In this document: in pieces, positions 26,003 to 44,335 of the stretch
Layout: each line of letters begins with the position of its first letter
How positions within the stretch are numbered: the stretch's first letter is position 1
Assembly: GCA_965198115.1 (NCBI GenBank)
Contig: OZ240241.1
Coordinates: 5,536,001 to 5,600,000 of the forward strand
Reading direction: 5' to 3'
Length of the DNA: 64,000 nt
Source of the DNA: Candidatus Latescibacterota bacterium
GTDB taxonomy: Bacteria; Latescibacterota; UBA2968
Notes under the pieces: model-generated
Database searches by the model: none
Seen by the model: only the letters and a program-made list of their open reading frames with translations
What the model was told of the DNA's origin: nothing
Made by a program: the position numbers and the translations under genes

Positions 26003-26068
26003 TTGTTTTCCGCGGGTTGGTGGGCGCTGTCGTCCGCCGCTTTCTTGCCTCTGACTTCTATCTTCTGT

Positions 26069-26195
26069 TCGCAGCCGGGAGGCTGCTCCCACCGTTGATT
26101 CGTTCGCTTCAGTGAGAGGGGCGAAGCCGTCTTTACCGCCCACCGCTCACAGCCGACCGCCGATCTGATTTTTCCCAGTCAGAGACTGTTCCCAC
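26069..26195 (-). repeat. Two GTGG-type REP-like hairpins
   Basis: Minus strand GTGGGAACAGTCTCTGACTGGGA (26195-26173) and GTGGGAGCAGCCTCCCGGCTGCGA (26092-26069). Confidence 0.55.
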
Positions 26196-26202
26196 AGCGA
26201 AC

Positions 26203-27906
26203 TCACATCTCATCCGGCGCCTGAATCCCGAGCAGCCCGAGGCCGTTCTTGAGAACGACCGTGATCGCGTAGACCAGCGTGATCCGTGAAGCGGTTAATG
26301 CTTCGTCATCGGAAACGACCCGGTGCGCATTGTAGAACCGGTTGGCTACCGTGCACAGGTCGATCAGGTAGCTCGCGATGTAGGAGGGCTCGTGTCCGTC
26401 GGCCGCTCGGCTGATGGCCGTCGGATACGCCGCCAATTGCTTGATCACTTCTGCCGTCTCGGGCTCGGTCAGCAAACCGAGGTTTGCTCCGGCAGGCGGC
26501 ACGTCCTCGGAGAACCTGCGCAGCACGGATCTGTAACGTGCGTGTGTGTACTGCACGTAAGGCCCTGTTTCCCCGTTGAAGTTCAGGATCTCGTCCCAAT
26601 CGAACTGGACGTCCTTGATCCGCCTCGAATCGACGTCGGCGAACAGGATAGCCCCGATCCCCACGGCCTCCGCGACCGCACCCTTGTTCTCGAGGTCCGG
26701 ATTCTTCTCTTCGATGATGTCACTGGCTAATTCAACGGCTCGATTCAGCACATCCTCCATCAGGACAATCTTGCCACGACGAGTCGACATCCCCCCGTCT
26801 TTAAACCGAAGGCGTCCAAACACCACGTGGGAGCAACGATCGCTCCACGCGTGTCCCATCAGTTCCAGCACCTTGAACAGCTGCCTGAAGTGCAGGGATT
26901 GCGCCACGTCGACTACATAAAGCATCTGGTCGAACGAATACTCCGACCAGCGATGTTCGGCCGCCGCGAGATCTCGCGTCGCGTAGAGCGAGGCCTCGTC
27001 GCTGCGATACGCCAGGAACGGTGGCATGTCCCACGCCTCCAGGTCCACGATCGTCGCTCCCTCGCTGATCTTCACGAGGCCCTTCTCCTTCAGCCGCTGG
27101 ACCGAGTCGTGCATCCGGTCGATGTGTGTGCTCTCGCCGGCCACCAGGTCGAATTCGATCCCCAGTCGATCGTAAACACGCTCGAACTCCTTCCAGCTGA
27201 TGTCACACGTCACTTGCCACATGCGACGTGCTTCCTCGTCTCCCGCCTCCAAACGGCGGAACCACGCACTCGCTTCTTCCTCCGCCTCCGGATTATCGTC
27301 GATCTCTTCGTTGATCCGGACGTAGAGGTCGAGAAGCGTGTGAATCGTGATATCCTCGGTCAGTTCACCCTCGCCCCACTTTTTCCAGGCCACGATCAGC
27401 TTCGCGAACTGTGACCCCCAATCGCCGAGATGATTGATGCCCACAACCCGATAACCGAGTGTGCTGAAGATGCGACGCAGTGCGCCGCCGATCACCGTCG
27501 AACGGAGATGATGGATGCCGAAGGGTTTGGCGATGTTCGGATGGGAAAAGTCGATGACGATGCTTTTGCCGGTACCTTCATCGCTTCGGCCGAAGTCATC
27601 GACCTGTTCGACGATCTGGCTCAGCGTATCACGTGCAAGATCATCTCGAGAAACGACGAAATTCAGGTAGGGTCCGGTCGGCCGAACCTCTGCGATGCGT
27701 CCACCGGTCTGAATGGACGATGCCAACTCCTCCGCGATCAGATTGGGGGCCTTCCGCATCGTCTTCGCGAATGAGAAGCAGGGAAGGGCGTAGTCCCCCA
27801 TCTCCGGGTTCGGCGGTGTTTCGATCAACCCGGCGAGGGCATCCCTATCCAGACCAGTCGGAGCGGTCAACTGATCGGCAATCTCATCGATATACGGATT
27901 CTGCAA
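26203..27906 (-). CDS. argS: Arginine--tRNA ligase
   Basis: DFSHPNIAKPFGIHHLRST (HIGH-like), NHLGDWG, MSTRRG, GETGPYVQYTHAR. Confidence 0.95.
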   Translation of the reverse strand: MQNPYIDEIADQLTAPTGLDRDALAGLIETPPNPEMGDYALPCFSFAKTMRKAPNLIAEELASSIQTGGRIAEVRPTGPYLNFVVSRDDLARDTLSQIVEQVDDFGRSDEGTGKSIVIDFSHPNIAKPFGIHHLRSTVIGGALRRIFSTLGYRVVGINHLGDWGSQFAKLIVAWKKWGEGELTEDITIHTLLDLYVRINEEIDDNPEAEEEASAWFRRLEAGDEEARRMWQVTCDISWKEFERVYDRLGIEFDLVAGESTHIDRMHDSVQRLKEKGLVKISEGATIVDLEAWDMPPFLAYRSDEASLYATRDLAAAEHRWSEYSFDQMLYVVDVAQSLHFRQLFKVLELMGHAWSDRCSHVVFGRLRFKDGGMSTRRGKIVLMEDVLNRAVELASDIIEEKNPDLENKGAVAEAVGIGAILFADVDSRRIKDVQFDWDEILNFNGETGPYVQYTHARYRSVLRRFSEDVPPAGANLGLLTEPETAEVIKQLAAYPTAISRAADGHEPSYIASYLIDLCTVANRFYNAHRVVSDDEALTASRITLVYAITVVLKNGLGLLGIQAPDEM

Positions 27907-27915
27907 GTGGAAACC

Positions 27916-28665
27916 TCACCGACATCCAACATAGATGGTGGCGATTCCGAACGACAGGGTCGTGCTGTCGACCTGAACGAAACCGACTGCCCGCATCCGA
28001 TCGCAGAACGCCTCTCCCTCCGGAAACCGCATCACCGACTCGCAGAGGTAACGGTAGGCGCTCTGATCCCTCGACACCAACCGCCCGATCGTCGGAAGAA
28101 CGTTCCGAAAATAGAACAGATACGGACCCCGCATCAGCGGGCTGTGCGGCTGCGAGAACTCCAGGATCGCCGCCCGGCCGCCGGGCTTGAGAACCCGGAT
28201 CATCTCCCCGAGCCCGGCATCGAGCTCGGCCACGTTGCGGATCCCGAAACCGATCGTCACACGGTCGAACGTCGCATCCTCGAACGGAAGCCGCTCCGCA
28301 TCTCCGGCGAGAAACGTCATCCGCGCCTCACGGTCCCGTCCCTTTCTCAGCCCGTAGTGAAGCATCCTCGTCGAGATGTCCGCGCCCGTCACTGCGATTC
28401 CGGCATCGCGATCAGCCGCCTCCAGACCGAGATCGCCCGTGCCGGTCGCCAGATCCAGAATCCGATCGCCCGCCTGGGGTCCCAGCGCATCGATCGTCTT
28501 CCGTCGCCAGACCACATCGGTCCCGGCGCTCAACAGCCGGTTGAGAACGTCGTAGGTCCCCGCGATCCCATCGAACATACGGCGTACGAAAACGCGTTTC
28601 TCATTCGGCGCGTCGAAGACTCTCGTCAGGATTGGCTCTTCTGGCGGTGTTTCGGTGGCGTTCAT
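27916..28665 (-). CDS. ubiE: UbiE/MenG quinone biosynthesis C-methyltransferase
   Basis: MFDGIAGTYDVLNRLLS, LDLATGTGD, DAERLPF, FGIRNV, RVLKPGG, AYRYLCES. Confidence 0.9.
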   Translation of the reverse strand: MNATETPPEEPILTRVFDAPNEKRVFVRRMFDGIAGTYDVLNRLLSAGTDVVWRRKTIDALGPQAGDRILDLATGTGDLGLEAADRDAGIAVTGADISTRMLHYGLRKGRDREARMTFLAGDAERLPFEDATFDRVTIGFGIRNVAELDAGLGEMIRVLKPGGRAAILEFSQPHSPLMRGPYLFYFRNVLPTIGRLVSRDQSAYRYLCESVMRFPEGEAFCDRMRAVGFVQVDSTTLSFGIATIYVGCR

Positions 28666-28680
28666 TGGTTGGTCGAGCGT

Positions 28681-28972
28681 GGCAGGCTCTGCCTGCCATC
28701 GGCAATTAAATGCGCTACGCTCGCCCCCGTGCTCTGCACGGGGGCACTACCGTTGCCCTATCGTGTGAGCTAAAACCTCAGTCCCCGTGCAGAGCACGGG
28801 GACAAGCGAGCGTAATGTAGTTTAACGTCCTCAGGCTGAGCCTGGGAACGAGGGAGGCGGACGCGAGAACGAGGGGTTGGGGCGGTCAGACGCACTTGGG
28901 AACGAGGCGTGGCCTCAACTCCGCCTTTCCTTTCGTTCTCCCATTCTGTGTGTTCGGTGTGTTCTGTGGTTC
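28681..28972. repeat. REP-like cluster with inverted pair of palindromes
   Basis: tacgctcgc-ccccgtgctctgcacgggg (28716-28744) is inverted relative to ccccgtgcagagcacggggacaagcgagcgta (28783-28814); also a ggcaggc/gcctgcc hairpin and tgggaacgagg twice. Confidence 0.7.
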
Positions 28973-28976
28973 CAAA

Positions 28977-29843
28977 CTACGATTGAAACCGTCCAACCAC
29001 GGCCTGCTTCATCACATCCGTAGGGGGAAAGGTGCCCGTCCAGATCTCGAACGACCGCGCACCCTGGAAGACCAGCATGTCGAGGCCGCCGTAGGCCTTC
29101 GCGCCGGCCGTCTCGAATTGCCCCATCAACGTCGTTTTCAACGGATTGAAAACCGTGTCGTAGAGGATGAGATCCGGATGGACGACTGTCGTGTCCACGA
29201 TGGGACTCCCATCGACCTCAGGATGCATCCCCAGCGACGTCGTGTTGACCACGAGCCCCGCGTCGACGAACGCGGCGCGCTGTTCTTCCACCTCCATCCC
29301 TCCGGGGTGAATGGCTTTCCCCGTGATCTTCTCCATATCCGCGGCCAGGGCTTCTGCTCGACGCGTCGTTCGATTGAGGAGCGTCACGCAGTCGACTTCG
29401 GCGCGAGACGCCAGCGCGTAGGTCACGGCTCGAGCGGCGCCCCCGGCCCCGAGCACGACGCAACGCGATGGGAGCGTCGACAGCCCGGCGACGCGTTCGA
29501 GTGCGGTCAAGACACCGAAGACATCCGTGTTGTGACCCGTCAGGTCGCCGTCTTCGTTGTGGATCGTGTTAACAGCTCCGACCGCGAGCGCTTCCTCCGA
29601 AATCCGATCGACGTGCTCCATCACCGCAAGCTTGTGCGGAATCGTCACATTCAGACCGAGCAAGTCGAAAGCGCGGACCCCGGCGACGGCCTCTCCGACG
29701 CGATCGGGAAGGACGTGGTAGGCCACGTAGCAGCAATCCAGCCCCAGGGCGTCGATCGCCGCGTTGTGCATGTCCGGCGAAAAGGAGTGCGCGATGGGAT
29801 CGCCGATCACACCCATCACACGACTGGTGGAACGAATCTTCAA
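28977..29843 (-). CDS. aroE: Shikimate dehydrogenase
   Basis: GDPIAHSFSPDMHN, GLNVTIPHK, GAVNT, NTD, GAGGAARA, GLDMLVFQGARSF. Confidence 0.95.
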   Translation of the reverse strand: MKIRSTSRVMGVIGDPIAHSFSPDMHNAAIDALGLDCCYVAYHVLPDRVGEAVAGVRAFDLLGLNVTIPHKLAVMEHVDRISEEALAVGAVNTIHNEDGDLTGHNTDVFGVLTALERVAGLSTLPSRCVVLGAGGAARAVTYALASRAEVDCVTLLNRTTRRAEALAADMEKITGKAIHPGGMEVEEQRAAFVDAGLVVNTTSLGMHPEVDGSPIVDTTVVHPDLILYDTVFNPLKTTLMGQFETAGAKAYGGLDMLVFQGARSFEIWTGTFPPTDVMKQAVVGRFQS

Positions 29844-30033: not shown

Positions 30034-31383
30034 CTATCTTCCTTTCACCCGGACCACGGACGCGATCCGCTCGAGGATTCCAGGATAGGTCTGATGCACG
30101 GGCCCTGGATTCACGATACGCGAAACGCCCTCCGCGGCCAGCCCGGCAACCGTCAGCGCCAACGTCACGCGTGCGTCTCCCCCCGCTTCCAGTTCGCCTC
30201 CCTGCAAGTTCTGTATGCCCTCGATGACCAGCCCATCCGGCATTTCTCCCACGCGGACACCGAGACGCCGAAGGTTCTCCACCATCAACTCGATGACGTC
30301 CGTGCCGCCTTCCCTCAACGCGGACACGTCGCGGATCACGGTTTCTCCCTGTGCGCAGGCGGCCACAACCGAGAGGAGCGGAATCTCGTCCCTGAAAAGC
30401 ACGCTGTACTCGTCGGCAATTTTGATCTTCCGAAGGTCGCCCATCGATTCGACGCGGTAGGCACGGGAGGAGATTCCAGAATCGGTCCGTGTCTTGTCAA
30501 TGTCGACACTAACGTTGAACCGTCTCAAGAGATCGATCAGGCGGCGTGTCTTCCAATCGGTGTGCGCATCCAGAACCGTTAGGGAGGACTGGGGCAGCAC
30601 CGCCGCGAGTCCCATCAGACAGGCCGCCGCCGTGGCGTCGCCGGGCAAAACGTGATCCATCGGCACCAGCGTCTGGGGCCCTTCCAGGAAGATTCGATGG
30701 CCGTCCGCATCCTCCACGCGGGCCTTTTCCAGCCGTCCCTCAGCGCGTCTGAACAGCACTTCCAGATCGTCTTCGCCCGCCAGGTCCTGAATCAGTTCAT
30801 AGGTCCCTTTTTGCCGAACCGCACCCAGGAATACTGCGGCCTTGACGGCGGAATCGGGTTGCCCGAGCGCGTAGGACCCCGGCTTCGGCGTGTTGATGCC
30901 GATCTCGACCTCGAACGGCGTTGCTTCGCCACCACGAACGACGATGCCAAAAGCCTCCAGGGCGTCGAGGATGCCTCGCGCTTCGCGAGTATAGGGGTCG
31001 CCGATCGTCAAACGACCTCCGAAGGCCGATCCGGCGACCAAACCGGAAAGACAGGCGAAAGCGGTGGGAGTCGACGCCTCGAGCACGGCGTCGGTCGATC
31101 GGAGCCCTCCTCCATGAACGGTCGCGGTCTCACCATCGAACGAAACCTCCACACCCAATCCAGAAAGCGGGGTCGCAATCGCCGTCACTTCCGGGCGTCC
31201 CGAACACCTCACCACGGTCGTCTCTCCGTTCACGAGCGCCCCGAACGCCAGCGCCATCGTCGACAGTTCCGGGTTTCCCGGCAGGTCGCACTGTCCGTTC
31301 AGCCCCGTTGCCTGGGGGATCGCCTCGAGGTCGATCTGCATCGCTTCGGATGGTGCTGCGACTTCCGTCTCTGCCATGCTCAC
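30034..31383 (-). CDS. EPSP synthase (AroA)-fold protein, catalytic residues degenerate
   Basis: Collinear with AroA (LPGDAT, DEIPLLSVVAACAQGETVIRD, PDGLVIEG), but PGxKS, SxQ, KExDR and DHR motifs are altered. Confidence 0.8.
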   Translation of the reverse strand: MSMAETEVAAPSEAMQIDLEAIPQATGLNGQCDLPGNPELSTMALAFGALVNGETTVVRCSGRPEVTAIATPLSGLGVEVSFDGETATVHGGGLRSTDAVLEASTPTAFACLSGLVAGSAFGGRLTIGDPYTREARGILDALEAFGIVVRGGEATPFEVEIGINTPKPGSYALGQPDSAVKAAVFLGAVRQKGTYELIQDLAGEDDLEVLFRRAEGRLEKARVEDADGHRIFLEGPQTLVPMDHVLPGDATAAACLMGLAAVLPQSSLTVLDAHTDWKTRRLIDLLRRFNVSVDIDKTRTDSGISSRAYRVESMGDLRKIKIADEYSVLFRDEIPLLSVVAACAQGETVIRDVSALREGGTDVIELMVENLRRLGVRVGEMPDGLVIEGIQNLQGGELEAGGDARVTLALTVAGLAAEGVSRIVNPGPVHQTYPGILERIASVVRVKGR

Positions 31384-31388
31384 TCCCG

Positions 31389-32483
31389 TTACACGAGAAC
31401 CTTGAATCCTCGACCTTCGAACAAGCGAGAAGCCGACTCGGCATCCGTTCCACTCCCGAATCCGAGTCGCAAAGAACCGCCTTCACCTTCGCGCACCTTC
31501 ATCACTTCGATGTCTTTGATGTTGATCCCCGCCTCCGCCAGCAGCCCACCAATTTCGGCGATCACACCGGGACGATCTTCGACCATCAGCCGCAGTTCGT
31601 GGAGCGGCGACATGAACCCTTTCGAGTCGCTCGGAATCCCGGCACGCACCTCCTGGGCATAGGAGAAGTCGGATGCCAGCGCGTCCACTTCCAAACGCGA
31701 GGAGATTTCGTCCAGCGTATCCCGAAACCTGGAGACGCTCTCTCGAATCGCCGCCACGTTCGTTTGGCAGATATCCCGCCACATCTCATAGGGGCTGGAG
31801 GCGATCCGCGTCATATCCCGAAAGCCCCCCGCCGCCATCTTCAGAGCCAGACCCTCCGGGACGTCGAGACGCCCCACCATCCCCACGAGGGATATCGCCA
31901 TCAGCTGGGGCAGGTGACTGATCGCCGCGGCCACACGATCGTGCGTCTCCGCATCCAGAACGAGAGTACGGGCACCCGTCGAACCCACGAGGTCCGCCAG
32001 ATTCTGGACGATCGCTTCATCCGTATTCGGGTCGGGTGTCAGCACATAGATCGCGTTCTGGAAAAGAAAGGGATCGGCTGCGTCGACGCCCCTCCACTCG
32101 GAACCCGCCATAGGATGGCCACCCACGAAATCCACGCCATCGCTGCCATGTTCCCGGGCAATTTCACAGATCGCCTGCTTCGTGCTGCCCACATCCGTCA
32201 CCACGCACCCGGGCGACACGGCTTCCAGGGTATCCGGAAGCAGCTCCAGAATCCGCGAAATGGGCGTCGACAGAAAAACGAAATCCGCTTCCCCGACCCC
32301 CTCCTTAAGTGCATCATACGGCACACCCGAATCGATCGCCCCGGTCGCGACCGCACGGTCGATCGTCTCCGGACGGCTGACGCCGACCACCCGGGACGCG
32401 ACGCCCGAGGCCTTGAGCGCCAGCCCGAGCGAACCGCCGATCAGCCCGACACCCACGATCGCGACGGAGGCGCCGTCGCTCAC
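31389..32483 (-). CDS. tyrA: Prephenate/arogenate dehydrogenase with C-terminal ACT domain
   Basis: GVGLIGGS, TDVGSTK, GGHPMAGSE, HDRVAAAISHLP, GFRDMTRIA; ACT 'EDRPGVIAEI..GINIKDIE'. Confidence 0.92.
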   Translation of the reverse strand: MSDGASVAIVGVGLIGGSLGLALKASGVASRVVGVSRPETIDRAVATGAIDSGVPYDALKEGVGEADFVFLSTPISRILELLPDTLEAVSPGCVVTDVGSTKQAICEIAREHGSDGVDFVGGHPMAGSEWRGVDAADPFLFQNAIYVLTPDPNTDEAIVQNLADLVGSTGARTLVLDAETHDRVAAAISHLPQLMAISLVGMVGRLDVPEGLALKMAAGGFRDMTRIASSPYEMWRDICQTNVAAIRESVSRFRDTLDEISSRLEVDALASDFSYAQEVRAGIPSDSKGFMSPLHELRLMVEDRPGVIAEIGGLLAEAGINIKDIEVMKVREGEGGSLRLGFGSGTDAESASRLFEGRGFKVLV

Positions 32484-32495
32484 GGTCGGGCCGCG

Positions 32496-33524
32496 CTAAA
32501 CACGTTCCGCCAGCTCCTTCACGAAAACGTCCGTCGCGTCCCAGCCCAAACAGGGATCGGTAATCGACTTTCCGTAAACCCCTTCCTCGACCGACTGCGA
32601 CCCCTCGATCAGATAACTTTCGACCATCAGCCCACGGATGATTTCACGAAGGAGATCGGAGCCGGAGCGGCTTCGCATCACCTCCATCACAATCCGTGGC
32701 TGTTCGGCAAACTGCTTGTCCGAGTTGTTGTGGTTCGCATCGACGACGAGGGTCGGGTTTTCGAGGTCCCGCTCCAGATACGCTTCGGCGATGTGCTGCA
32801 AGTCCTCATAGTGGTAGTTGGGGTAGCTCCGGCCGCTCGAGTTGACCCATCCCCGCAGAATCGCGTGAGCCAGGGGGTTGCCGGCGGTTCGCGCCACCCA
32901 ACGGTTGTAGTTCATCTCGTGCGGAATCTGCGCCGCATAAACGGCATTCAGCATCACGCCGATGTCGCCACCGGTCGGATTCTTCATGCCCACGGGCACA
33001 TCCACGCCGCTCGCCGTAAGACGGTGTTGCTGGTTCTCTGTCGACCGTGCCCCGACGGCGACGTAGCTCAGAATGTCCTCGACGTATGGGAAATTGCCGG
33101 GGTAGAGCATCTCATCGGCCGCGCTCAAATGCGACTCGGAAAAAGCACGGATGTGCATCTTCCGAATCGACATCAGTCCTTCGACGATGTCCGGATCCTT
33201 TTCCGGATCCGGCTGATGGGCCATGCCTTTGTAGCCTTCCCCCGTCGTCCGTGGCTTGTTCGTGTAGATTCGGGGGACCAGGATCAGTTTCTCCTCCACT
33301 GCTTCCTGCAGTTTGGCCAGACGTCCGACGTACTCGCACACGGCGTCCTCGTTGTCCGCCGAACAAGGCCCGATGATCAGCATCATCTTGCCATTCTTGC
33401 GCTCGAAAATATCCTTCAACTCAGCGTCCCGCCTCGCCTTGACCTTCGCCAGGTCGGGGTCGACGGGAAACTGCTCCCGGATGTCTTCCGGAAGGGGCGT
33501 TTCACCGATCAGTTTGAATGCCAT
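32496..33524 (-). CDS. DAHP synthase (class I-alpha)
   Basis: IIGPCSA, KPRTTGEGYKG, GARSTENQQHR, PVGMKN, ILRG, GKSITDPCLGW. Confidence 0.93.
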   Translation of the reverse strand: MAFKLIGETPLPEDIREQFPVDPDLAKVKARRDAELKDIFERKNGKMMLIIGPCSADNEDAVCEYVGRLAKLQEAVEEKLILVPRIYTNKPRTTGEGYKGMAHQPDPEKDPDIVEGLMSIRKMHIRAFSESHLSAADEMLYPGNFPYVEDILSYVAVGARSTENQQHRLTASGVDVPVGMKNPTGGDIGVMLNAVYAAQIPHEMNYNRWVARTAGNPLAHAILRGWVNSSGRSYPNYHYEDLQHIAEAYLERDLENPTLVVDANHNNSDKQFAEQPRIVMEVMRSRSGSDLLREIIRGLMVESYLIEGSQSVEEGVYGKSITDPCLGWDATDVFVKELAERV

Positions 33525-33539
33525 GATATCGCTCCGAGT

Positions 33540-33818
33540 TTACTTCGATTCGTCTTCTCCGTATTCCTGCTCGAGCCGGCGCGCTTCGTCGATGATCTGC
33601 CGAAAAATGCGCTCCACGGCCTTGTTGCTGAGGGGACCTCTGTTCAGCGATTCCAACTGTCGCAGCACCGCCGTTTCTCGCTCGGGTGCGTAAATCGGCT
33701 GATCGTTCGCTCGCTTGATCTTGCCGACCTCCAACGCGCACCGTGCGCGTTCGCTCAGCAGCTCGAGCAGCTCGCTGTTGATGGCGTCGATTTTCTGTCG
33801 CCAGTCCTCGATATCCAT
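33540..33818 (-). CDS. Chorismate mutase (AroQ type, monofunctional)
   Basis: IEDWRQKIDAINSELLELLSERA..VGKIK..IYAPERE. Confidence 0.9.
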   Translation of the reverse strand: MDIEDWRQKIDAINSELLELLSERARCALEVGKIKRANDQPIYAPERETAVLRQLESLNRGPLSNKAVERIFRQIIDEARRLEQEYGEDESK

Positions 33819-33821
33819 GAA

Positions 33822-34619
33822 CTATCCTTTGAGCGGGCGAACCAGATCGGCCGCAAAGTCCCCGATCTGGGTGACCAGACCGGGATCCTCTCCTTTTTCA
33901 CCAATGCGGCGAACGATCGCGCTCCCCACGACGACCGCGTCAGCCAGCCGCCCGACCTCGGCCGCGTGGTCCGGCGTCGAGATGCCGAAACCCACCGCGA
34001 GTGGCAGCGTCGTATGCGAGCGAATCTGTTCCACCATCGGCCCGAGTGAATCAGACAACGTCTGCTGTTCACCCGTGACCCCTGCTCGAGATACGTAGTA
34101 GACAAAACCCGTCGACGCTTCGGCGATCGTCTTGATTCGGCCCTCCCGGCTGGTCGGCGCCAGCAGAAAGACGGTATCCAACCCCGCGGCGTGCATCAGC
34201 TCACGGTAGGTCGATGCCTCTTCGGGTGGAAGATCCGAAATGATCGTGCCGTCGACACCCACGTCGGCGCAGCGCTTCACGAAATCTCCCAGACCATACC
34301 GATAGACCGGGTTGCAATACGTCATGAGGATCATCGGAATAGCCGAGCGCTTTCGGATGGCGATCACCGTGTCGAAAATGTCGACGACGGTCGTTCCGTT
34401 CTTCAAAGCGCGTTGGCCGGCCGCCTGAATCGTAGGGCCGTCCGCCAGCGGATCCGAGAAAGGTACGCCTAGTTCAACCACGTCGGACCCCGCCTCCTCG
34501 AGTGCGCAAACCAGGTCTACCGTCGCCTCGAGGCTCGGATCTCCCACCATGATGTAGGGAATGAAGCCCGTATGGCCGACTTCGTTCAGCTGTCTGAACG
34601 TGTCCCCCAAGCGCCCCAC
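33822..34619 (-). CDS. trpA: Tryptophan synthase alpha chain
   Basis: ELGVPFSDPLADGPTIQ, GFVYYVSRAGVTG, VGFGIS, VVVGSA. Confidence 0.96.
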   Translation of the reverse strand: MGRLGDTFRQLNEVGHTGFIPYIMVGDPSLEATVDLVCALEEAGSDVVELGVPFSDPLADGPTIQAAGQRALKNGTTVVDIFDTVIAIRKRSAIPMILMTYCNPVYRYGLGDFVKRCADVGVDGTIISDLPPEEASTYRELMHAAGLDTVFLLAPTSREGRIKTIAEASTGFVYYVSRAGVTGEQQTLSDSLGPMVEQIRSHTTLPLAVGFGISTPDHAAEVGRLADAVVVGSAIVRRIGEKGEDPGLVTQIGDFAADLVRPLKG

Positions 34620-34621
34620 CG

Positions 34622-35821
34622 TCAGTCCAACCCCTCGATCATGTCCGCCGCCTGCGTGACGTCTTTGTCTCCTCTCCCGGACAGATTCACGAGGACGATC
34701 TCGTCTCGATCCATCGACGGCGCTCGTTTGACGACCTCCGCGATCGCGTGCGCGCTCTCGAGCGCGGGAGTGATTCCCTCGACGCGGCTCAACAGCTGGA
34801 ACGCCTCGAGAGCCTCATCGTCCGTGGCATAGGTGTATTCGATTCGGTCGTGATCCCGCAAATAGCAATGCTCCGGCCCGACGCCCGAATAGTCCAACCC
34901 GGCCGAGACCGAATGCGTCAAAGCGATCTGGCCGTCGTCGTCCTGCAATACATAGATCTGCGATCCGTGAAGCACGCCCAGACGACCCCCGCAGAATCGT
35001 GCCGCGTGCTCGCCCGACTCGATCCCCCGTCCCCCCGCTTCGACACCCACCATCCGGACGTCGTCGTCCAAAAACCGGTGAAACAACCCGATCGAATTGC
35101 TTCCACCACCGACACAGGCCACGAGACAATCCGGCAGACGACCTTCCACCTCCAGCATCTGATCGCGCGCCTCGACGCCGATGACACGTTGGAAATCCCG
35201 GACGATCATCGGATACGGATGCGGACCCAGAACGGACCCGAAAATGTAGAACGTCGAATCGACGTTCGTCACCCAGTCCCGAATCGCCTCGTTGATCGCA
35301 TCCTTCAACGTCCGGCTGCCCGACTCCACGCCCGTCACCGTTGCCCCGAGCAGCTGCATTCGGAACACGTTGAGCGCCTGGCGGGCCATGTCTTCGGTGC
35401 CCATGTAGATCTCGCAATCGAGACCGAACATCGCCGCCACCGTCGCCGTCGCCACGCCGTGCTGGCCCGCACCCGTCTCCGCGATGATGCGTGTCTTGCC
35501 CATGCGACGCGCCAGCAGAATCTGACCCATCGAATTGTTGATCTTGTGCGCGCCCGTGTGCGCCAGATCCTCTCGCTTCAGGTAGATCTTCGCACCACCC
35601 AACCGTTCCGTCAGACGTTCGGCGAAGTAGATGGGCGTCGGTCTGCCCACGAAGTTCCGCAGGTAGTGACCGAGCTCGTTCTGAAACGCTTCGCTCTCCC
35701 TGGCTTCACGGTAGGCCGCCTCCAGATCGTCGAGGAGGGCCATCAGGGTTTCCGGCACGTATCGTCCCCCGTATGTGCCGAAGCGACCTCTTTCATCGGG
35801 TAGCGTATCTGATTTGGTCAC
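34622..35821 (-). CDS. trpB: Tryptophan synthase beta chain
   Basis: [53 protein letters not shown]; GTG start is approximate. Confidence 0.96.
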
Positions 35822-35836
35822 ACCACTCCCCTTCAA

Positions 35837-37411
35837 TTATGAACCACCTGGAACAACGTGTTCGGCAATCGTCCGAAACAATACCCGTCGGTGGGACGCA
35901 CCGTCCTCGCCCCCGGAGAATCGGTGCAGGGCAATCACGATGGCGTTCGCGGGATCGACGCGAAAACTCGACCCGGTCACACCGTCACGCCCGTAACTCC
36001 CCGTCCCCAGACCTTCTCCAGGCTTTGGAACGATGCCGATGCCGCGCACGCCGCGCACGCCTGTCATAGCCTGAGCGGTTTCCGGCTCGATAAACAGGAA
36101 ATCCCCGTAGGACCCGCCGTTCAACAAGAGCTGACCCAACTTCGCCAGGTCCAGTGGTACACTCCACGCGTCATCGTGCGTCCCGAAAACCTCGGTGTCG
36201 TCACACGCGAGTGGACTCAGAAGATGATCGCGATAGAACGCGTCGAGTGCTTCGCCGCTGACGGCCTCGATCACCTTCCCCACGAGCGCCATCCCACTGC
36301 TCGACGCTCCACCACCCCCCACCTCGACATCATCCGCCACGCCCGCCACGCGCTCCTCCAGATCGTTGATGTCGTCACGCCACCCGTCCGCGATTCCACT
36401 CGTGTGCGTGACCAGATGACGCACCGTCATCGCCGGGTCGAGCGCCGTGCCGCGGAGCGGAACGAGATACTTCGCCACGGGCGCATCCAGTTCGACGCGC
36501 TTCTGGTCGACCAACGTCATCAACGCGAGCCCCGCGAGCACCTCCGTCACCTCGGCCAGCGGGGTCTGCGTCGCGAGCGTCATCGGCCTGGACCCGATCC
36601 CACCGACCGCACGGTAGTAGAAGACTACGCCCTTCCTCGCCACACAGAGAGACAGAGGCTCGTCTGACTGCCAGGCCGCAAGTACCGAATCCAGGGCGGC
36701 CGTCACCGTCTCCCGCATACCTGCTTCGGACGGCGAGCCGAACGTCAGCTCAGTCGAGCGCCCCCGATAGACCGCGGTGGGACAGTCGAACGCTTCGGCC
36801 GGTTCGAGATCGTAGAGCCGCCGCTTGAGACCGACCCACCACGTTCGATCCCTCGCCTGGCTTGCCCGTATGCCACCGGTACCCGGCACGAGCTCGTGCA
36901 GCCCCGCGAAAAGCGCGCCCGCCTGCTCGTCGTCCGTCAACCCCCGCACGACCTGTCGGATCACAAAAGCCGAAAGTGCAGCGCCCTGTTCGACGATCAC
37001 GATCGGGTCGATCGCCATTTCGTAGGGCAAATCGACGAGCGGGACCGTCGTGGACGGGTCCCATACAACCGGAGCCACGTGACGATAGAGCGTCTTGAAT
37101 CGTCGATACGTCCGCCCCGAGGAGGCCCGCACGGTCACGACCGCACCGTATCGGCCGGCTTCCGTCGGCGCCGTAACTCGACGGTAGTTCCGATCGTAAA
37201 AGTCGACCTCGATCGTATACGGTCCGATTCTCCGTCTGGCCAGCAGCGAATCGGCAAAGTCGCACGGAGGAAACGTCTCTCCCGAAAACACGTGAGGCGC
37301 GAACACCATCGGCTGCCGGGCGAACGCCGTGGCCACCGACTCTACAGATTGGCCCGACACGACGCCCGTGCAGATCCAGACCAGGAGTGCGAGCCACGAC
37401 GGCCATCTCAT
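35837..37411 (-). CDS. Secreted serine hydrolase/beta-lactamase-fold protein, active site degenerate
   Basis: Signal peptide MRWPSWLALLVWICTG; LDAPVAKYL, TVRHLVTHTSG, IEAVSG, DLAKLGQLLLNGG; SxxK position reads EVTE. Confidence 0.75.
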   Translation of the reverse strand: MRWPSWLALLVWICTGVVSGQSVESVATAFARQPMVFAPHVFSGETFPPCDFADSLLARRRIGPYTIEVDFYDRNYRRVTAPTEAGRYGAVVTVRASSGRTYRRFKTLYRHVAPVVWDPSTTVPLVDLPYEMAIDPIVIVEQGAALSAFVIRQVVRGLTDDEQAGALFAGLHELVPGTGGIRASQARDRTWWVGLKRRLYDLEPAEAFDCPTAVYRGRSTELTFGSPSEAGMRETVTAALDSVLAAWQSDEPLSLCVARKGVVFYYRAVGGIGSRPMTLATQTPLAEVTEVLAGLALMTLVDQKRVELDAPVAKYLVPLRGTALDPAMTVRHLVTHTSGIADGWRDDINDLEERVAGVADDVEVGGGGASSSGMALVGKVIEAVSGEALDAFYRDHLLSPLACDDTEVFGTHDDAWSVPLDLAKLGQLLLNGGSYGDFLFIEPETAQAMTGVRGVRGIGIVPKPGEGLGTGSYGRDGVTGSSFRVDPANAIVIALHRFSGGEDGASHRRVLFRTIAEHVVPGGS

Positions 37412-37415
37412 GACC

Positions 37416-38669
37416 CTATCGGTCCCACCGCACCAGGAAGTAATTCCGCTTCCCACGTCGCATCACGAGGAATTTCCCGCACAACGCGTCGCTCGGAGCC
37501 AGGGTCTTTTCCAGCGTGTCACACCGCTCCCCGTTGATGTAAATGGCCCCACTGCTGATGTCTTCGCGCGCCTGCCGCTTCGACTTGGAAATACTGGCGT
37601 CGACCAGGAGATCGATCAGCCCGATTTCCGTGCCGCCCAACGAATGTGAGGGGACGTCGCTGAATCCCTCCTCGACCTCCTGCTCTGACAGACTCCCGAG
37701 GTCATCGCTGAAAAGGGCTTCCGATATGTGGACCGCGCGATGCATCGCCTCCTCGCCGTGAACGAGCTTCGTCACCTCCTCGGCCAGGACACGTTGGGCC
37801 TCCCGTTTCTCCGGTGCCCTTTCCACCTCGCGCGACAGAGCTTCGATCGCCTCGCACGACAGGAACGTGAACATCATCAAAAAAGACACGGCATCGGCAT
37901 CGGGCACGTTCACGAACCACTGGTAAAACTGATAGGGCGACGTCAACTCCGCGTCGAGCCAGATCGCCGAGCCTTCCGATTTGCTGAACTTCTTGCCATC
38001 CGACCGCTCCAGGAGGGGGTTTGTCAGCCCGAAGGCCTGCTCTCCGAGTTCCCGCCGAATCAGTTCGGCGCCGGCCGTGATGTTACCCCACTGGTCGCTC
38101 CCGCCGATCTGGAGCTCACAATCGTAGACCCTCCGCAACTCGAGGAAATCATAGGCCTGCAAGACCATATAACTGAACTCGGTGTAGGAGATCCCTGCCT
38201 CCATCCGTGAGGAAACCGACTCCTTGGCCAGCATGTAGCCGAGCGAGAAGTGTTTGCCGACGTCCCTCAACAGATCGATGGCGCGCAGTTCCGAAAGCCA
38301 CGTGTAGTTGGACACGATCCGCGCTGGGTTCGACTTGACCTCGAAGTCCAGGTATCGCTCGAGTTGGCCCCGCATCCTGTTCGTCCACGCATCGACGACC
38401 TCCGTCGTGTTCAGCTTCCGCTCCTCGTCCCGCCCGCTCGGATCGCCGATCAGACCCGTACCGCCACCAACCAAACCGATCGGGTGGTGACCGGCCAGCT
38501 GAAACCGCCTCAACACGAGAGCCGGGATCAGATTTCCGATCGTCAAACTCTCCGCCGTCGGGTCGAAACCCGAGTAGAGCGTGACCGGTCCTCGCTGCAA
38601 CCGTTCTTCCAGCCCTTCCGTCTGCTGAAACACGAGACCCCGGTAGGTCAGATCTTCCAAAATATCCAC
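37416..38669 (-). CDS. tyrS: Tyrosine--tRNA ligase
   Basis: YSGFDPTAESLTIGN, IGDPSG, QIGGSDQWGNI, KFSKS (KMSKS-like), C-terminal S4 domain. Confidence 0.95.
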   Translation of the reverse strand: MDILEDLTYRGLVFQQTEGLEERLQRGPVTLYSGFDPTAESLTIGNLIPALVLRRFQLAGHHPIGLVGGGTGLIGDPSGRDEERKLNTTEVVDAWTNRMRGQLERYLDFEVKSNPARIVSNYTWLSELRAIDLLRDVGKHFSLGYMLAKESVSSRMEAGISYTEFSYMVLQAYDFLELRRVYDCELQIGGSDQWGNITAGAELIRRELGEQAFGLTNPLLERSDGKKFSKSEGSAIWLDAELTSPYQFYQWFVNVPDADAVSFLMMFTFLSCEAIEALSREVERAPEKREAQRVLAEEVTKLVHGEEAMHRAVHISEALFSDDLGSLSEQEVEEGFSDVPSHSLGGTEIGLIDLLVDASISKSKRQAREDISSGAIYINGERCDTLEKTLAPSDALCGKFLVMRRGKRNYFLVRWDR

Positions 38670-38684
38670 GAACGCCCTCTCCAA

Positions 38685-39305
38685 TCAGATGCCGCGCACG
38701 GCGCGGATGAATGCGCGCACCTTCTCGTGATCTTTCTTGCCCGGCTCCACTTCCACACCGCTGCCCGTGTCGACGGCATAAGGCTCCACGGTCCGAATGC
38801 CCTCGATCACGTTTTCAGGGTCCATCCCGCCCGACAGCACGACACGACCCTCGTCCTTAACGGCGAGGGCGGCGCCCCAATCGAACGTCTCTCCCGTTCC
38901 GCCGTAAAACCCCTCCTTCGCCGCATCCAGCAGAAACGTCGACACGCCAGAACGGGCATAGGGTGTGAGCGACCCGGCATCGAACCCCTTCCCGACTTGA
39001 ACCGCGCGAATCACCGCCCCATCGACCGCCGCACACGTCTCTGGAGATTCATCGCCGTGAAGCTGGGCGCATTGAAGACCTGTCTCACGCAGCGTGGACG
39101 AAACGCGCTCAGACGGCACATTCACGAACACCCCGACGGGGGTCACGAACGGTGGCAAATCCTTCACGATACTCGTCACTGTCTCGAGCGACACGTAGCG
39201 GGGGCTCTTCGGATAGAAGATGAAGCCCAGCGCATCCGCGCCCGCATCGACGGCGCACGCGGCGTCGTCGGCATTCGTGATGCCGCAGATCTTGATGCGA
39301 ACCAT
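38685..39305 (-). CDS. trpF: Phosphoribosylanthranilate isomerase
   Basis: KICGIT, GADALGFIFYPKSPR, QLHGDE, GGTGETFDW, SGVE..PGKKD. Confidence 0.94.
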   Translation of the reverse strand: MVRIKICGITNADDAACAVDAGADALGFIFYPKSPRYVSLETVTSIVKDLPPFVTPVGVFVNVPSERVSSTLRETGLQCAQLHGDESPETCAAVDGAVIRAVQVGKGFDAGSLTPYARSGVSTFLLDAAKEGFYGGTGETFDWGAALAVKDEGRVVLSGGMDPENVIEGIRTVEPYAVDTGSGVEVEPGKKDHEKVRAFIRAVRGI

Positions 39306-39344
39306 CCCGGCGTCACCTGCCCATCTGCTTCACGACGACGGGAC

Positions 39345-40142
39345 TCACGCTTCCTCTCCCAAAAGCTCCCGCAACTTGAGTCCGATGTCTGTCTCCCGCA
39401 TCAGACTCTCGCCCACGAGGACCGCGTCGGCGCCCGCATCTCTGACCCGTATCACGTCGGCCCGTGTCCCGATTCCGCTCTCGCTCACGATCAACGTGTC
39501 CTCGGGCAGCAACCGGGCCACACGCTCGGTCGTCTCGAGCGTCGTATCGAAGGTGTGGAGATCGCGGTTGTTGATCCCGACAATCTCGGCCCCCGCGTCA
39601 ACGGCTCGTCTTCCCTCGCTCTCCGTATGGACCTCCACGACGGCATCCAGATCCAACCCTCGCGACACCTCCAAAAACTGCCGAAGCAACGCATCTTCCA
39701 GCGCCGCCACGATCAGCAGGACGGCCGACGCACCGATCGCGCGCGCCTCGTAGATCTGGTAGCCGTCTACCGTAAAGTCTTTGCGCAGGAGCGGTAGCCT
39801 CACGGCCTCGTGCACCGCCGTCAGGAAGTCCGCCGACCCCTGAAAATACTTCTCGTCCGTCAACAGGGAGATGGCGGATGCTCCGTGTGCTTCGTACGTC
39901 ACCCCGATCGTGACCGGGTCGAAATCCTCGCGAATCAATCCCTTAGAGGGCGAAGCTTTCTTGATCTCCGCGATCACCGCAATGTCGTCACCCGACGTCA
40001 GTGCCTCGAACAGAGAGGCCGGCTGCGCCGCCGAGTCGGCGCATGCCCGAACCGTCTCCTCGGGAACCCGTCCCCTCGCGTCGGCCACCACGCCCCGCTT
40101 GTAAGCGACGATCTCATCCAGAATGCTCGACACGGCGTTCAT
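39345..40142 (-). CDS. trpC: Indole-3-glycerol phosphate synthase
   Basis: [37 protein letters not shown]; start overlaps the trpD stop (ATGA). Confidence 0.95.
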
Positions 40143-41155
40143 CCCCGACTCGCCTCGATCAGCCCATCCAACTTCTCTCTTGCCGCGCCGGAATCGATCG
40201 TCTCCGCCGCCAGGGCCGCGCCCGTCTTCAGATCCTCGGCGACCCCGCCTGCAACGAGCGCGAACGCGGCGTTCAGCAGGACGATGTCTCTCCGCGGGCC
40301 CGTCTGGCCATCGAGGACGTCTCGCAGCAGCTTCGCATTCTCGTCGGGATCGCCCCCACTCAGATCTTCGCCCCGGGCGGCTTCGATACCCAGATCCTCG
40401 GGCGACACCTCGTAGGTCGTCACCGTGCCGTCCTTCAGCTCGCTCACACGCGTCGGGCCGGTCGTCGTCGCTTCGTCCAGTCCGTCGGACCCGTGCACGA
40501 CGAAGGCGTGTTCGGCGCCAAGCCCGCCCAGCACTTTCGCCAGGGGCTCCGTCAGATCGGGGCTGTAAACTCCGATGACCTGCCGCGTCGCCCCCGCCGG
40601 ATTCGTCAGCGGCCCGAGGGCGTTGAAAATCGTGCGCGCCCCGAGTTCGCGACGGGGGCCGATCGCGTGCTTCATCGCCCCGTGTAACGAGATCGCGAAA
40701 AGAAACCCGATCCCCACATCGTCCAGACAGCGACCGACCGTTTCCGGGTCGGCCTCGACGTCCACACCCAGCGCACTCAACACATCCGCGCTCCCGCACT
40801 GGCTCGACGCGGCTCGATTCCCGTGTTTGGCCACACAGAGTCCCGCCCCGGCGACGACGAACGCGCACGTCGTCGAGATGTTGAACGTACCCGAATGGTC
40901 CCCGCCGGTTCCGCACGTGTCGACGACGGGACGTCGATCGGTCTGTATCCGCGTCGCCTTGTCCCTCATCACCTCCGCGGCACCCGCGATCTCATCGACC
41001 GTCTCTCCCTTGATCCGCAACCCAACCAGGAAGCCACCGATCTGGGCGTCGGTCGCCTCACCCGACATGATCGCGTTCATCACCTCGACCATTTCGTCGC
41101 GCATCAGATCACGCCCCTCGATCACACGGGCGATCGCTCCTTGTATCGTCATCAT
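40139..41155 (-). CDS. trpD: Anthranilate phosphoribosyltransferase
   Basis: [42 protein letters not shown]. Confidence 0.95.
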
Positions 41156-41185
41156 CGGTCCTCGTCGTTCACGGAATCGCCGTCC

Positions 41186-41749
41186 TCACGCATCCAGGAA
41201 GTTCTGCAGCAAATCGTGGCCGGTCTTCGTCAGAATCGACTCAGGATGAAACTGAACCCCCTCCACGGGCATCGTCTTGTGTCTCAGACCCATGATCGTC
41301 CCATCGTCCGTCTCCGCCGAAACCTCCAGGCAGTCTGGCAGGCTCTCCCGTTCGACCATCAACGAGTGATAGCGCGTGGCCGTGAACGGCTGCGGTAACC
41401 CTTCGAACAGGGTCCTGCCGTCGTGCGAGATCTCCGACGTCTTACCGTGCATAATGGTCGGCGCGCCGACCACTATGCCTCCGAAGGCCTGACCGACCGA
41501 TTGATGTCCCAAACAGACACCCAGGATCGGGAGCTTCCCCGCGAACGCCTCGATCAGCGAGACCGAGATCCCCGCCTCGTTCGGCGTACACGGTCCCGGC
41601 GAAACGACGATGCGATCGGCCTCCAGCTCTTCGATCTCCTCGAGCGTCACACGATCGTTGCGTTTCACCTCCAGCGTCGCACCCAGTTCACCCAGATACT
41701 GTACGAGGTTGTAGGTAAACGAATCGTAGTTGTCGATCACCAGAATCAC
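41186..41749 (-). CDS. trpG: Anthranilate synthase component II (glutamine amidotransferase)
   Basis: [35 protein letters not shown]; GTGA overlap with the trpE stop. Confidence 0.93.
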
Positions 41750-43266
41750 GACGACGCCCCTGCCGCAAACGCACCTCGTTCGGCCATCTCGACTGCGCGG
41801 AACTGGGCACGCGCCTTGTTTTCCGTTTCGGTGAACTCGTACTCGGGCTCCGAATCGAAAACGATCCCCCCACCCGCTTGAACGTAGGCCTTGTCGTTCT
41901 TGAGCACCATCGTCCGGATCGCAATGCACGTATCCATGTTGCCCGAGAAGTCGATGTAGCCTACGGCACCCGCGTAGGGGCCCCGTCGCGTGGGTTCGAG
42001 CTCGTCGATGATCTCCATCGCCCGAATCTTGGGCGCACCGGAGACCGTGCCCGCGGGGTAGCAGGCGAAAAGCGCATCGAGTGCGTCCACGTCGTCTCTT
42101 AACCGTCCTTCGACGTTCGAAACGATGTGCATCACGTGGGAATAGCGCTCGACGTTCATCTGCTCCGTCACCCGGACCGTATCGAAGGACGAAACCCGCC
42201 CGACGTCATTTCGGCCCAGGTCGACCAGCATGATGTGCTCGGCGCATTCCTTCTCGTCCCCCAGCAGTTCTTCGCCAAGCTCTCGATCCTCTTCATCGGT
42301 CCGTCCACGCCATCGTGTTCCTGCGATCGGCCTCACCTGCACCTTACGATCCTCGACACGAACCAGAAGCTCGGGAGAAGCTCCAACGAGCCTGCAGTCC
42401 CCCAGATCGACGTGGAACATGTAGGGCGAGGGATTGACGGTCCTGAGCATCCGGTAGATCGCGCTCGAATCGACCGTCACATCGGTCTCGAACCGTTGCG
42501 ACAGCACGACCTGAAAGATGTCCCCCGCCACGATGTAGTCGCGACACCGCTCCACCTTCTTCAAATAGTCGGCCTTTTCGGTGTTCGAACGAACGGCACA
42601 CGCGCTCGTGCCTCCACTCAATTGCGCTTGCAGTGGTTGGGCGAGCGCCTCCTCCAGGGTCGCGATCTTGTCCTTCGCAGCCTCGTACCCGTCCGAAACA
42701 CTCTCGCCTGTATGTACGTTGGTGATCAGGTGGATCACGTGCTCGACGTTGTCGAACGCGAGCAACGTGTCGAAAAACATCAGAACGATGTCGTCGAGTT
42801 TCAGATCGTCGGCCGTGTCGTCCGGGATGTCCTCCATCAGACGAATCGCGTCGTAGCCCACGTATCCGACGGCGCCGCCCGTGAATCGGGGCATCCCCTC
42901 CACGTGGGCCGAGCGATACGTTCCGAGCAATCTGCGCAGGGCCTCGATCGGATCCCCCTCGATCTCCGACCTCTCGCCCTTCCGAAGATCCTCGGTGCGG
43001 ATCCGCGTGCCGCGGCTGCGAAACACGAGAAAGGGCTCGACCCCCAGGAAGGAGTAACGACCGACCTTCTCACCACCCTCGACGCTCTCGAACAGGAACG
43101 AATGGGGCGCACGGGTCCGAATCTTCAGGTAGGCCGACAGGGGGGTTTCGAGATCGCCCAGGATGGTGCGGGAGACCGGGACCAGATCCGCCGTCGCTGC
43201 GAGGGTCTGGACCTCGTCGAGGGAGGGCTCAATCACGCTGAACTTCGCTTTCCGTTTGGTGGCCAA
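41746..43266 (-). CDS. trpE: Anthranilate synthase component I
   Basis: FLFES (Trp feedback site), [48 protein letters not shown]; start could instead be GTG at 43236. Confidence 0.94.
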
Positions 43267-43275
43267 AAGCTTTGT

Positions 43276-43303
43276 AATATGCTGTTTATCAGGTATTTGT
43301 CAA
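43276..43303 (-). promoter_or_regulatory. Candidate internal sigma70 promoter downstream of the attenuator
   Basis: Minus strand TTGACA (43303-43298)-N16-CATATT (43281-43276). Confidence 0.45.
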
Positions 43304-43340
43304 GGTTGACCCGGGCACTGGACAGGGCGCTTTTCGGCAC

Positions 43341-43369
43341 AAAAAAAGCTGTGAGCCGAAGCCCACAGC
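43341..43369 (-). terminator. Rho-independent attenuator terminator
   Basis: GCUGUGGGC-UUCG-GCUCACAGC-U7: 9-bp stem with cUUCGg tetraloop, between leader ORF and trpE. Confidence 0.88.
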
Positions 43370-43396
43370 CTAAGAATCCTGTTTTGATCGATCGAC

Positions 43397-43489
43397 TCAG
43401 ACGAATGGGCACACGGAGAGCGGAATCGCGAACCAATAGAAGGCGCGGCGGGAAAAATACCGGTCGTATCGTGTGTTCTGAGTCTTCAT
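43397..43489 (-). CDS. Aromatic-rich attenuation leader peptide (30 aa)
   Basis: MKTQNTRYDRYFSRRAFYWFAIPLSVCPFV*; 8 of 30 residues aromatic; AGGA upstream; lies between promoter and terminator. Confidence 0.78.
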   Translation of the reverse strand: MKTQNTRYDRYFSRRAFYWFAIPLSVCPFV

Positions 43490-43515
43490 AGGGTCATCGT
43501 CCTGCGACGGCGAAA

Positions 43516-43544
43516 ACAGTAGCAAAACGGGCACGTCGTGTCAA
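43516..43544 (-). promoter_or_regulatory. Sigma70-type promoter of the trp/aro leader
   Basis: TTGACA (43544-43539)-N17-TACTGT (43521-43516) with extended -10 TGn. Confidence 0.75.
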
Positions 43545-43549
43545 GTCGA

Positions 43550-44278: not shown

Positions 44279-44335
44279 ACGGGTTCTCTCCTCGATGACG
44301 AAAAATGTCAGCGTTTTCAGATCAGACGAACGACG

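Follow-up and report, generated by a model that had tools for sequence, protein, structure and literature searches.

How a single site might adjust the expression of genes that together serve tryptophan, tyrosine and the shared aromatic pathway is the question raised by the region upstream of trpE in a Candidatus Latescibacterota bacterium. The window analysed here is a 64 000-nucleotide stretch of its genome (assembly GCA_965198115.1, contig OZ240241.1, positions 5 536 001 to 5 600 000), and all positions without a genome label refer to it. Between a promoter-like site and trpE lies a short, aromatic-rich open reading frame followed by a hairpin, and the arrangement is very probably a genuine and conserved ribosome-mediated transcription attenuator.

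The genes behind this site form an 18-gene aromatic cluster in the order trpE-G-D-C-F-tyrS-(beta-lactamase fold)-trpB-A-chorismate mutase-DAHP synthase-tyrA-aroA, then aroE-ubiE-argS-aroK-aroB, an order also found in relatives; all are on the minus strand. The first gene, trpE (41746..43236; TIGR00564 above cut-off), starts at GTG 43236 according to the starts of its homologues and at TTG 43266 according to the ORF tool, and its closest named relatives, 69–72% identical, come mostly from Ca. Latescibacterota. Profile matches identify trpG, trpD, trpC and trpF (38685..41749), trpB and trpA (33822..35836) and aroE, ubiE/menG, argS, aroK and aroB (24186..29843; same order in relatives), while tyrS (37416..38654; TIGR00234) is the genome's sole match to a tyrosyl-tRNA synthetase. 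A chorismate mutase of the shared Phe/Tyr branch (33540..33818; PF01817, with TIGR01807 above cut-off) is followed by DAHP synthase, tyrA and an aroA-like gene (30034..33524), the aroA and tyrA matches lying below the curated cut-offs. The beta-lactamase-fold (serine hydrolase-like) gene inserted between tyrS and trpB (35837..37411; PF00144) is a genus-level passenger, present in three genomes of family f1 and elsewhere replaced or missing; an HMGL-like gene occupies its place in genera g4, g6 and g7.

The preliminary description had proposed a joint trp+aro+tyr operon, which fits the stretch from trpE through aroA, including the trp, DAHP synthase, tyrA and aroA-like genes, where no intergenic gap exceeds 39 nt. 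Co-transcription of aroE-ubiE-argS-aroK-aroB is less sure because of gaps of 190, 311 and 332 nt, although the strand is the same, and the original gene list had overlooked tyrS, chorismate mutase, argS, aroK and aroB. The distal part also contains a promoter-like site, GTGAAA-18-TACAAT with TG (25969-25998), before aroK-aroB, which may uncouple the last genes of the cluster from the attenuator, and a long imperfect inverted repeat in the 311-nt aroE-ubiE gap (28666-28976), perhaps a small mobile repeat. Elsewhere in the genome, pheA lies 1.47 Mb away from the cluster, miaA is present and a search for TrpR gave no match.

The elements upstream of trpE are all read on the minus strand. The sigma-70-type promoter-like site P1 (43516..43544) consists of TTGACA (43544-43539), a spacer of 17 nt, an extended −10 TG (43524-43523) and TACTGT (43521-43516); it scores below the threshold of the promoter scanner, and a similar site is found upstream of the leader in 40 of 44 curated leaders. 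The ORF that follows (43397..43489) runs from ATG 43489 to TGA 43397 and encodes a peptide of 30 residues with three Tyr, four Phe, one Trp and four Arg, for which a Pfam search gave no match. Its control-codon zone, delimited by codon geometry over 42 leaders, extends from Y8 to F20 (43430..43468) and includes Y11, F12 and the consecutive F17-Y18-W19-F20 core (43441-43430); a last aromatic residue, F29, stands near the end. The antiterminator 5′ arm (43396..43410), defined by folding and covariation, comprises GCCCAU (43410-43405) and GUCUGAG (43402-43396) and overlaps the leader stop codon. On the same grounds, a shared segment (43361..43374) is assigned both to the antiterminator 3′ arm and to the terminator 5′ arm, with CUUAGGC, the partner of GUCUGAG, at 43374-43368. 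The intrinsic terminator (43341..43371; terminator scan and covariation) has a stem at 43371-43346 with a UUCG loop and a U7 tail at 43347-43341. The promoter, the 30-codon frame and its aromatic residues, both arms and their partner, the hairpin and trpE behind it were thus all found where the preliminary description had placed them; its list of parts lacked a second promoter-like site (43303-43276), considered below.

Base composition gives at least eight Phe, Trp or Tyr among 29 codons a chance of 2e-4 to 4.5e-3. The 8.4-Mb genome has 1009 terminator-like sites, three of which have a short upstream ORF with at least six aromatics in 16 residues, and the trpE leader tops these three with seven in 16; another aromatic-rich candidate, at G000:5422769, was rejected as a leader, being the end of a long ORF. 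The window alone is not decisive for the structure: the fold of the whole leader has a z-score of −0.87 relative to shuffles and the antiterminator duplex is equalled by 67 of 300 shuffles. The structural support is comparative. One RNA run, with 0.06 of words and no contig over 43255-43488, is uninformative for the leader, and one contig of a DNA run, possibly from the source sample, is identical over 42223-45000.

Alignment of the regions upstream of trpE in relatives, a check proposed with the original description, revealed an aromatic-rich leader ORF and the same terminator motif at 29 of 30 trpE loci of the order (the best 30 from 41 genomes), the lone exception having only 140 nt of upstream sequence. 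Across the phylum, where a TrpE match was obtained in 102 of 168 genomes, 60 trpE loci were fetched, chosen for spread over families. Leaders were present at 15/15 loci of the order (largely the genomes of the 30-locus set), at 3/3 in f3, 16/16 in f4 and 3/3 in f5, as well as at one locus in f8, one in f13 and five in f14 (terminator detected in three). No leader with a terminator was found before trpE in f9 (0/2), f10 (0/10, one of these loci having just 78 nt upstream) or f12 (0/2), and two f6 loci were too short to judge. A TrpE tree from a quick search served to check that the groups are clades and not to order events.

The loci differ in their surroundings. Clusters of f4, the sister family (L142-L157), read trpE-G-D-C-trpS-CM-tyrA, with no trpF, trpB, trpA or DAHP synthase match inside, and 57 of 76 f4 genomes gave no TrpE match at 1e-120. 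In genus g4 (L011, L013, L018, L022 and L025), insertions lie just upstream of the leader or between the terminator and trpE, and the leaders at L011, L013, L018 and L022 are immediately preceded by the end of a different short gene.

For the comparison of structures, 45 leaders were picked by hand, two of them from beyond the phylum and the others at one to four per genus; 44 had a terminator and 42 were aligned without structural input, L178 being left out for having no terminator under the filter, and L161 (f8) and L176 (f13) for having their best duplex elsewhere. In the terminator, 96.8% of cells pair and six of nine pairs are changed on both sides. In the antiterminator, which the leader 3′ end forms with the 5′ arm and loop of the terminator, 83.5% of cells pair and seven of nine pairs of the GCCCAU helix are changed on both sides (the GUCUGAG helix is not counted); none of 500 shuffles reaches either result, although these figures are not probabilities, because the pairs were drawn from the same sequences and kin are not independent. 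Both-side changes in the antiterminator amount to 47, against 19 in shuffled data, with slid controls at 29–49%, the counts being of sequences rather than events and the main changes marking a few lineage splits. The duplex is stronger with the partner from its own locus than with that of another family in 35 of 44 leaders, and individually significant against shuffles (p ≤ 0.05) in 19 of 44. The arm falls in frames 0, 1 and 2 in 7, 22 and 13 of the 42 leaders and lies after the stop codon in two loci, which indicates that the RNA, and not the peptide, is constrained. The mutually exclusive antiterminator that had been proposed from the window is strongly supported by this covariation.

The position of the aromatic codons relative to this structure is informative. 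In the 42 leaders they reach 64–68% at 24–35 nt upstream of the antiterminator anchor and fall to 1–7% within 17 nt, as expected if the antiterminator arm has to stay clear of a stalled ribosome; the control codons thus stop slightly more than a ribosome footprint short of the arm. In a masking scan of the window with a 15-nt mask, the antiterminator is predicted as long as the A site has not passed codon 22, and by codon 26 it has disappeared, placing the switch two to six codons past the last core aromatic codon; masks of 12 or 18 nt shift this point by one codon either way. The all-zero scan of L131, whose arm lies after the stop, is an artefact of the partner-position limit. Computed masking and codon geometry thus agree with the earlier proposal that a stall frees the arm while a ribosome at the stop codon covers it. 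A protector (1:2) pairing was not predicted in the window or in most f1–f3 leaders scanned, and two f4 leaders show one; over the control codons only weak local hairpins are predicted, and in the window the antiterminator is still predicted without any ribosome. The predicted energy of the antiterminator in nascent RNA up to the terminator loop is −20.3 kcal/mol. With a stall at W19 in the full-length RNA the prediction is −25.1 kcal/mol for the terminator against −21.0 kcal/mol for the antiterminator and, since the terminator wins at equilibrium, the switch would have to be kinetic.

Conservation, covariation and codon geometry, all read from sequence, strongly support attenuation through this antiterminator. 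The signal would be low charging of tRNA-Tyr, tRNA-Phe or tRNA-Trp, and slow decoding of the aromatic codons would result in read-through of the terminator into the cluster, with Tyr codons contributing most and those for Phe and Trp probably contributing as well. A ribosome stalled at codon 22 or before would allow the antiterminator to form in the nascent RNA, while one located between about codon 26 and the stop would mask the arm, so that the terminator forms; such a co-transcriptional switch would need a pause site. As no protector hairpin is predicted, a delay anywhere in codons 8–20 is expected to suffice by itself, in the manner of an OR gate, and read-through is expected from a leader that is not translated. 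In the race model, as outlined in the accessible part of its source, sensitivity rises in step with the proportion of codons that are regulatory (PMC1183508), and the strongest response would thus be expected for the commonest codon.

Which amino acids are sensed is a separate matter. Tyr, Phe and Trp all occur in each of the 23 leaders of the tyrS-bearing lineage, in keeping with the three-amino-acid leader first proposed, but the mix is uneven and Tyr is the constant signal near the switch. In the stretch proximal to the switch (20–41 nt away), 59 of 169 codons are Tyr, 17 Phe and 10 Trp, and Tyr is found there in all 23 leaders, Phe in 14 and Trp in 10; farther upstream in the same leaders, 42 of 230 codons are Phe, 28 Tyr and 25 Trp. 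The leader in the window, which has a single Trp codon, holds all three types in the proximal stretch, and its F-Y-W-F core is specific to its genus (two genomes). It is plausible that one leader integrates all three aromatic tRNAs, and a measurable response to each of the three amino acids is probable. The same attenuator might nevertheless respond in effect to tyrosine, in connection with tyrS and tyrA, its Phe and Trp codons being relics of a Trp-type ancestor or by-products of U-rich sequence that contribute little to control. The proximal constancy of Tyr points in this direction, as do the location of pheA outside the cluster and the presence in the same genome of distinct leader candidates with Trp codons only, which precede a TrpRS-like gene. 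Yet Phe and Trp, at 10.4 and 5.1% of residues, are kept in 23/23 leaders where base composition predicts 2–4 and 1.5–1.9%, the proximal stretch in the window holds F and W beside Y, the cluster includes DAHP synthase and chorismate mutase as well as a complete trp branch, and distal stalls are also predicted to leave the antiterminator free. We regard such an effectively tyrosine-only role as rather unlikely.

The codon mix appears to follow the synthetase gene of the cluster. Residue shares are 13.3% Tyr, 10.4% Phe and 5.1% Trp in the tyrS lineage and 10.0% Trp, 4.3% Tyr and 4.3% Phe in the trpS lineage. In f4, where the cluster contains trpS instead of tyrS (TIGR00233 in 5/5 tested), the leaders are Trp-rich (27 Trp, 12 Phe and 10 Tyr of 87), and in f3 the leader is Y2 F3 W2 in the genome that lacks a synthetase gene and Y4 F4 W1 in the two that have tyrS, so that the link rests on about two independent contrasts. 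A counter-case is G022, in which the cluster breaks after trpD and tyrS lies elsewhere, and the leader is still Y3 F3 W2. Outside the phylum, 12 of 14 loci of a Marinimicrobia-type group have mixed Tyr/Trp/Phe leaders, prephenate dehydratase being part of the cluster at nine of the 14, and Trp-only leaders stand before trp-only clusters such as L060; four Dehalococcoidia loci gave no clear leader. These comparisons suggest that mixed leaders go with mixed clusters, with Tyr leading in the tyrS lineage. The 12 Marinimicrobia-type leaders (L067, L068, L074, L076, L082, L083, L086, L089, L091, L093, L096 and L099) have a different terminator sequence, precede trp-pheA-tyrA-aro clusters and are perhaps of separate origin. 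Only tentatively, and with somewhat more doubt than confidence, can the whole be put as a phylum-wide attenuator that lacks a protector and combines Tyr-, Phe- and Trp-tRNA as a three-input OR gate, that is the clearest instance of a leader peptide sensing tyrosine, and whose codons were re-tuned in evolution to the entering tyrS or trpS, with a similar mixed system reached on unrelated hairpins in Marinimicrobia.

Codons for Phe, Tyr and Trp all begin with U, and the leader could mainly read the modification of tRNA A37 (MiaA/MiaB) or general ribosome speed. The genome has miaA, stalling on the leader de-represses trp when Pseudomonas aeruginosa loses MiaA, according to the available part of that report (PMC13434334), any slowdown should give read-through where no protector hairpin exists, and Ser codons in the control zone are 28 UCN to eight AGY. 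On the other hand, 181 of 399 control-zone codons are aromatic, none is Cys and five are Leu UUR, although these too are U-initial, and the Tyr/Trp balance tracks the synthetase gene, which a modification sensor would not need. This account is very improbable, and A37 modification is more likely to be a side input of the aromatic attenuator than its purpose.

The promoter scan also identified P2, TTGACA-16-CATATT, between the terminator and trpE (43276..43303, minus strand). A TTGAC(A/T) hexamer is found in this gap in 16 of 24 f1–f3 leaders (naive expectation 1.2) and in none of 12 in f4, and a full P2-type site passes the filter in 10 of 44 leaders. P2 would supply basal expression of the essential tyrS; judged by sequence, it may bypass the attenuator and could carry much of the expression. 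A reading in which P2 is the real trp promoter, the hairpin the 3′ terminator of an upstream ABC-transporter gene and the ORF incidental draws on the frequency of this −35 hexamer and on the ABC ATPase gene, whose end is separated from P1 by 6 nt in which no terminator was found. It is scarcely credible given that the leader and terminator persist behind other genes (e.g. L003, L006-L009 and L026-L030), that P1 is kept in 40/44 leaders and that the antiterminator covaries. Leader and terminator also persist at g4 and g7 loci where the terminator lies 19–37 nt from trpE, leaving no room for P2; P2 is absent there and cannot, as a result, replace read-through in general. Nascent-peptide arrest of the TnaC or SpeFL kind, or sensing of Arg-tRNA, is highly improbable: Arg accounts for 14.6% of the residues in the leaders, frequently in the form RxR or RR beside aromatic codons, argS is in the cluster and many leaders end in C-P-x-x, but base composition alone predicts 8.6–12.4% Arg, the C-P end reflects just one of the three frames in which the underlying nucleotide motif occurs, the peptides vary in length and residues without fixed residue spacing, and sensing through argS was rejected because Arg is equally high (15.3%) in five leaders with argS absent from the cluster DNA examined.

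Among known systems, the nearest in design are the Trp_leader family of Rfam (RF00513; PMC2659441) and the pheL leader-peptide attenuator of E. coli (PMC3082878), as far as the accessible text of these sources describes them. The window gave no match in an Rfam search, T-box riboswitches included, and no leader-peptide family at E-values up to 10 in 43200-43600. As in E. coli trpL and pheL, a short ORF of cognate codons, an antiterminator overlapping the leader end and a terminator precede the first gene; unlike them, the Latescibacterota leader uses codons for all three aromatic amino acids with Tyr in the lead, matches no Rfam family, has no predicted protector hairpin and heads a 13- to 18-gene trp-tyrS-aro-tyrA cluster in a genome without a TrpR match. 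The leaders of thr and ilvGMEDA are multivalent, for two or three amino acids. They too bring together in one leader the codons for more than one end product of a branched pathway; the present one concerns the aromatic family in another phylum, and no sequence similarity was found. Both thr and ilvGMEDA are named as attenuated operons in the excerpted text of PMC1183508.

Control of the common-pathway DAHP synthase gene by a leader has candidates elsewhere: a uORFC-13-1 motif before aroF in Acholeplasma, described in the available text with Phe codons only (PMC8632094), and an aroF-tyrA entry, 'Attenuator sensing tyr-tRNA', for Shewanella and E. coli, given there as a hypothesis without a proposed structure (PMC2659441). 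A Tyr-tRNA signal had thus already been proposed; as these sources present their cases, the Latescibacterota leader differs in offering a full structure that covaries across the phylum. In E. coli, pheST is a synthetase operon preceded by a leader peptide. Leader peptides also stand before cysS (uORFC-8-2; PMC8632094) and hisS paralogues in bacilli (PMC2965389), in the parts of these papers at hand. In all of these, insofar as the sources describe them, the synthetase of the sensed amino acid is under leader control, as here; the present case differs in that the synthetase gene is embedded among biosynthetic genes and that the tyrS and trpS lineages have different dominant codons. The literature search found no Tyr/Phe/Trp leader and none in Latescibacterota, and subscription surveys, reportedly including the comparative attenuation surveys of Vitreschak 2004 and Lopatovskaya 2010, may already list mixed aromatic leaders. 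The closest cases in the accessible parts of PMC3082878, PMC13434334, PMC4833913, PMC13602947, PMC2659441, PMC8632094, PMC2965389 and PMC1183508 were the aroF uORF, the aroF-tyrA entry and the cysS and hisS leaders.

Other leader-like sites were observed in the same genome (G000). A Leu/Val/Ile-rich 30-codon leader with a TTGACA promoter-like site and a terminator lies before the acetolactate synthase gene ilvB (L112; G000:C1 ~8017560-8017860, minus strand) and is a candidate for a second classical multivalent attenuator. At L182, a run of four Trp codons and a strong terminator (−25.3 kcal/mol) stand directly before a short degenerate TrpRS-like gene (G000:C1 ~4437250-4437420, minus strand), the reading frame of the run continuing through the hairpin. 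A 32-codon ORF with WWGW, a TTGACA-17-TATCCT site and a terminator (likewise L182; G000:C1 ~4440415-4440600, minus strand) precedes phosphotransferase-family and ECF sigma factor genes 3 kb upstream of the TrpRS-like gene, so that one small cluster has two Trp-type leaders. No leader with a terminator was found in G000 before pheA, hisG, the ilvN-ilvC-leuA cluster or the main trpS, and three copies of a unit made up of a short ORF and a strong hairpin, next to transposase-like ORFs (G000:C1 ~1130468, 1132899 and 1448716) were rejected as element ends.

The trpE leader is likely to represent the textbook attenuation mechanism in an unusual mixed-codon, Tyr-led form. In the E. coli trp operon, blocked leader translation leads to stronger termination; the opposite, read-through, is predicted for the Latescibacterota leader. 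A pan-aromatic sensor of 200 nt could also serve as a biosensor part. With this locus, leader-peptide attenuation would be extended to Ca. Latescibacterota and to tyrosine, for which it was hitherto a hypothesis in the available text of PMC2659441. On a single homologous RNA scaffold, the leaders would grade naturally from Trp-only forms via Trp-rich ones to mixed forms rich in Tyr, a series well suited to testing the evolution of control codons against operon content.
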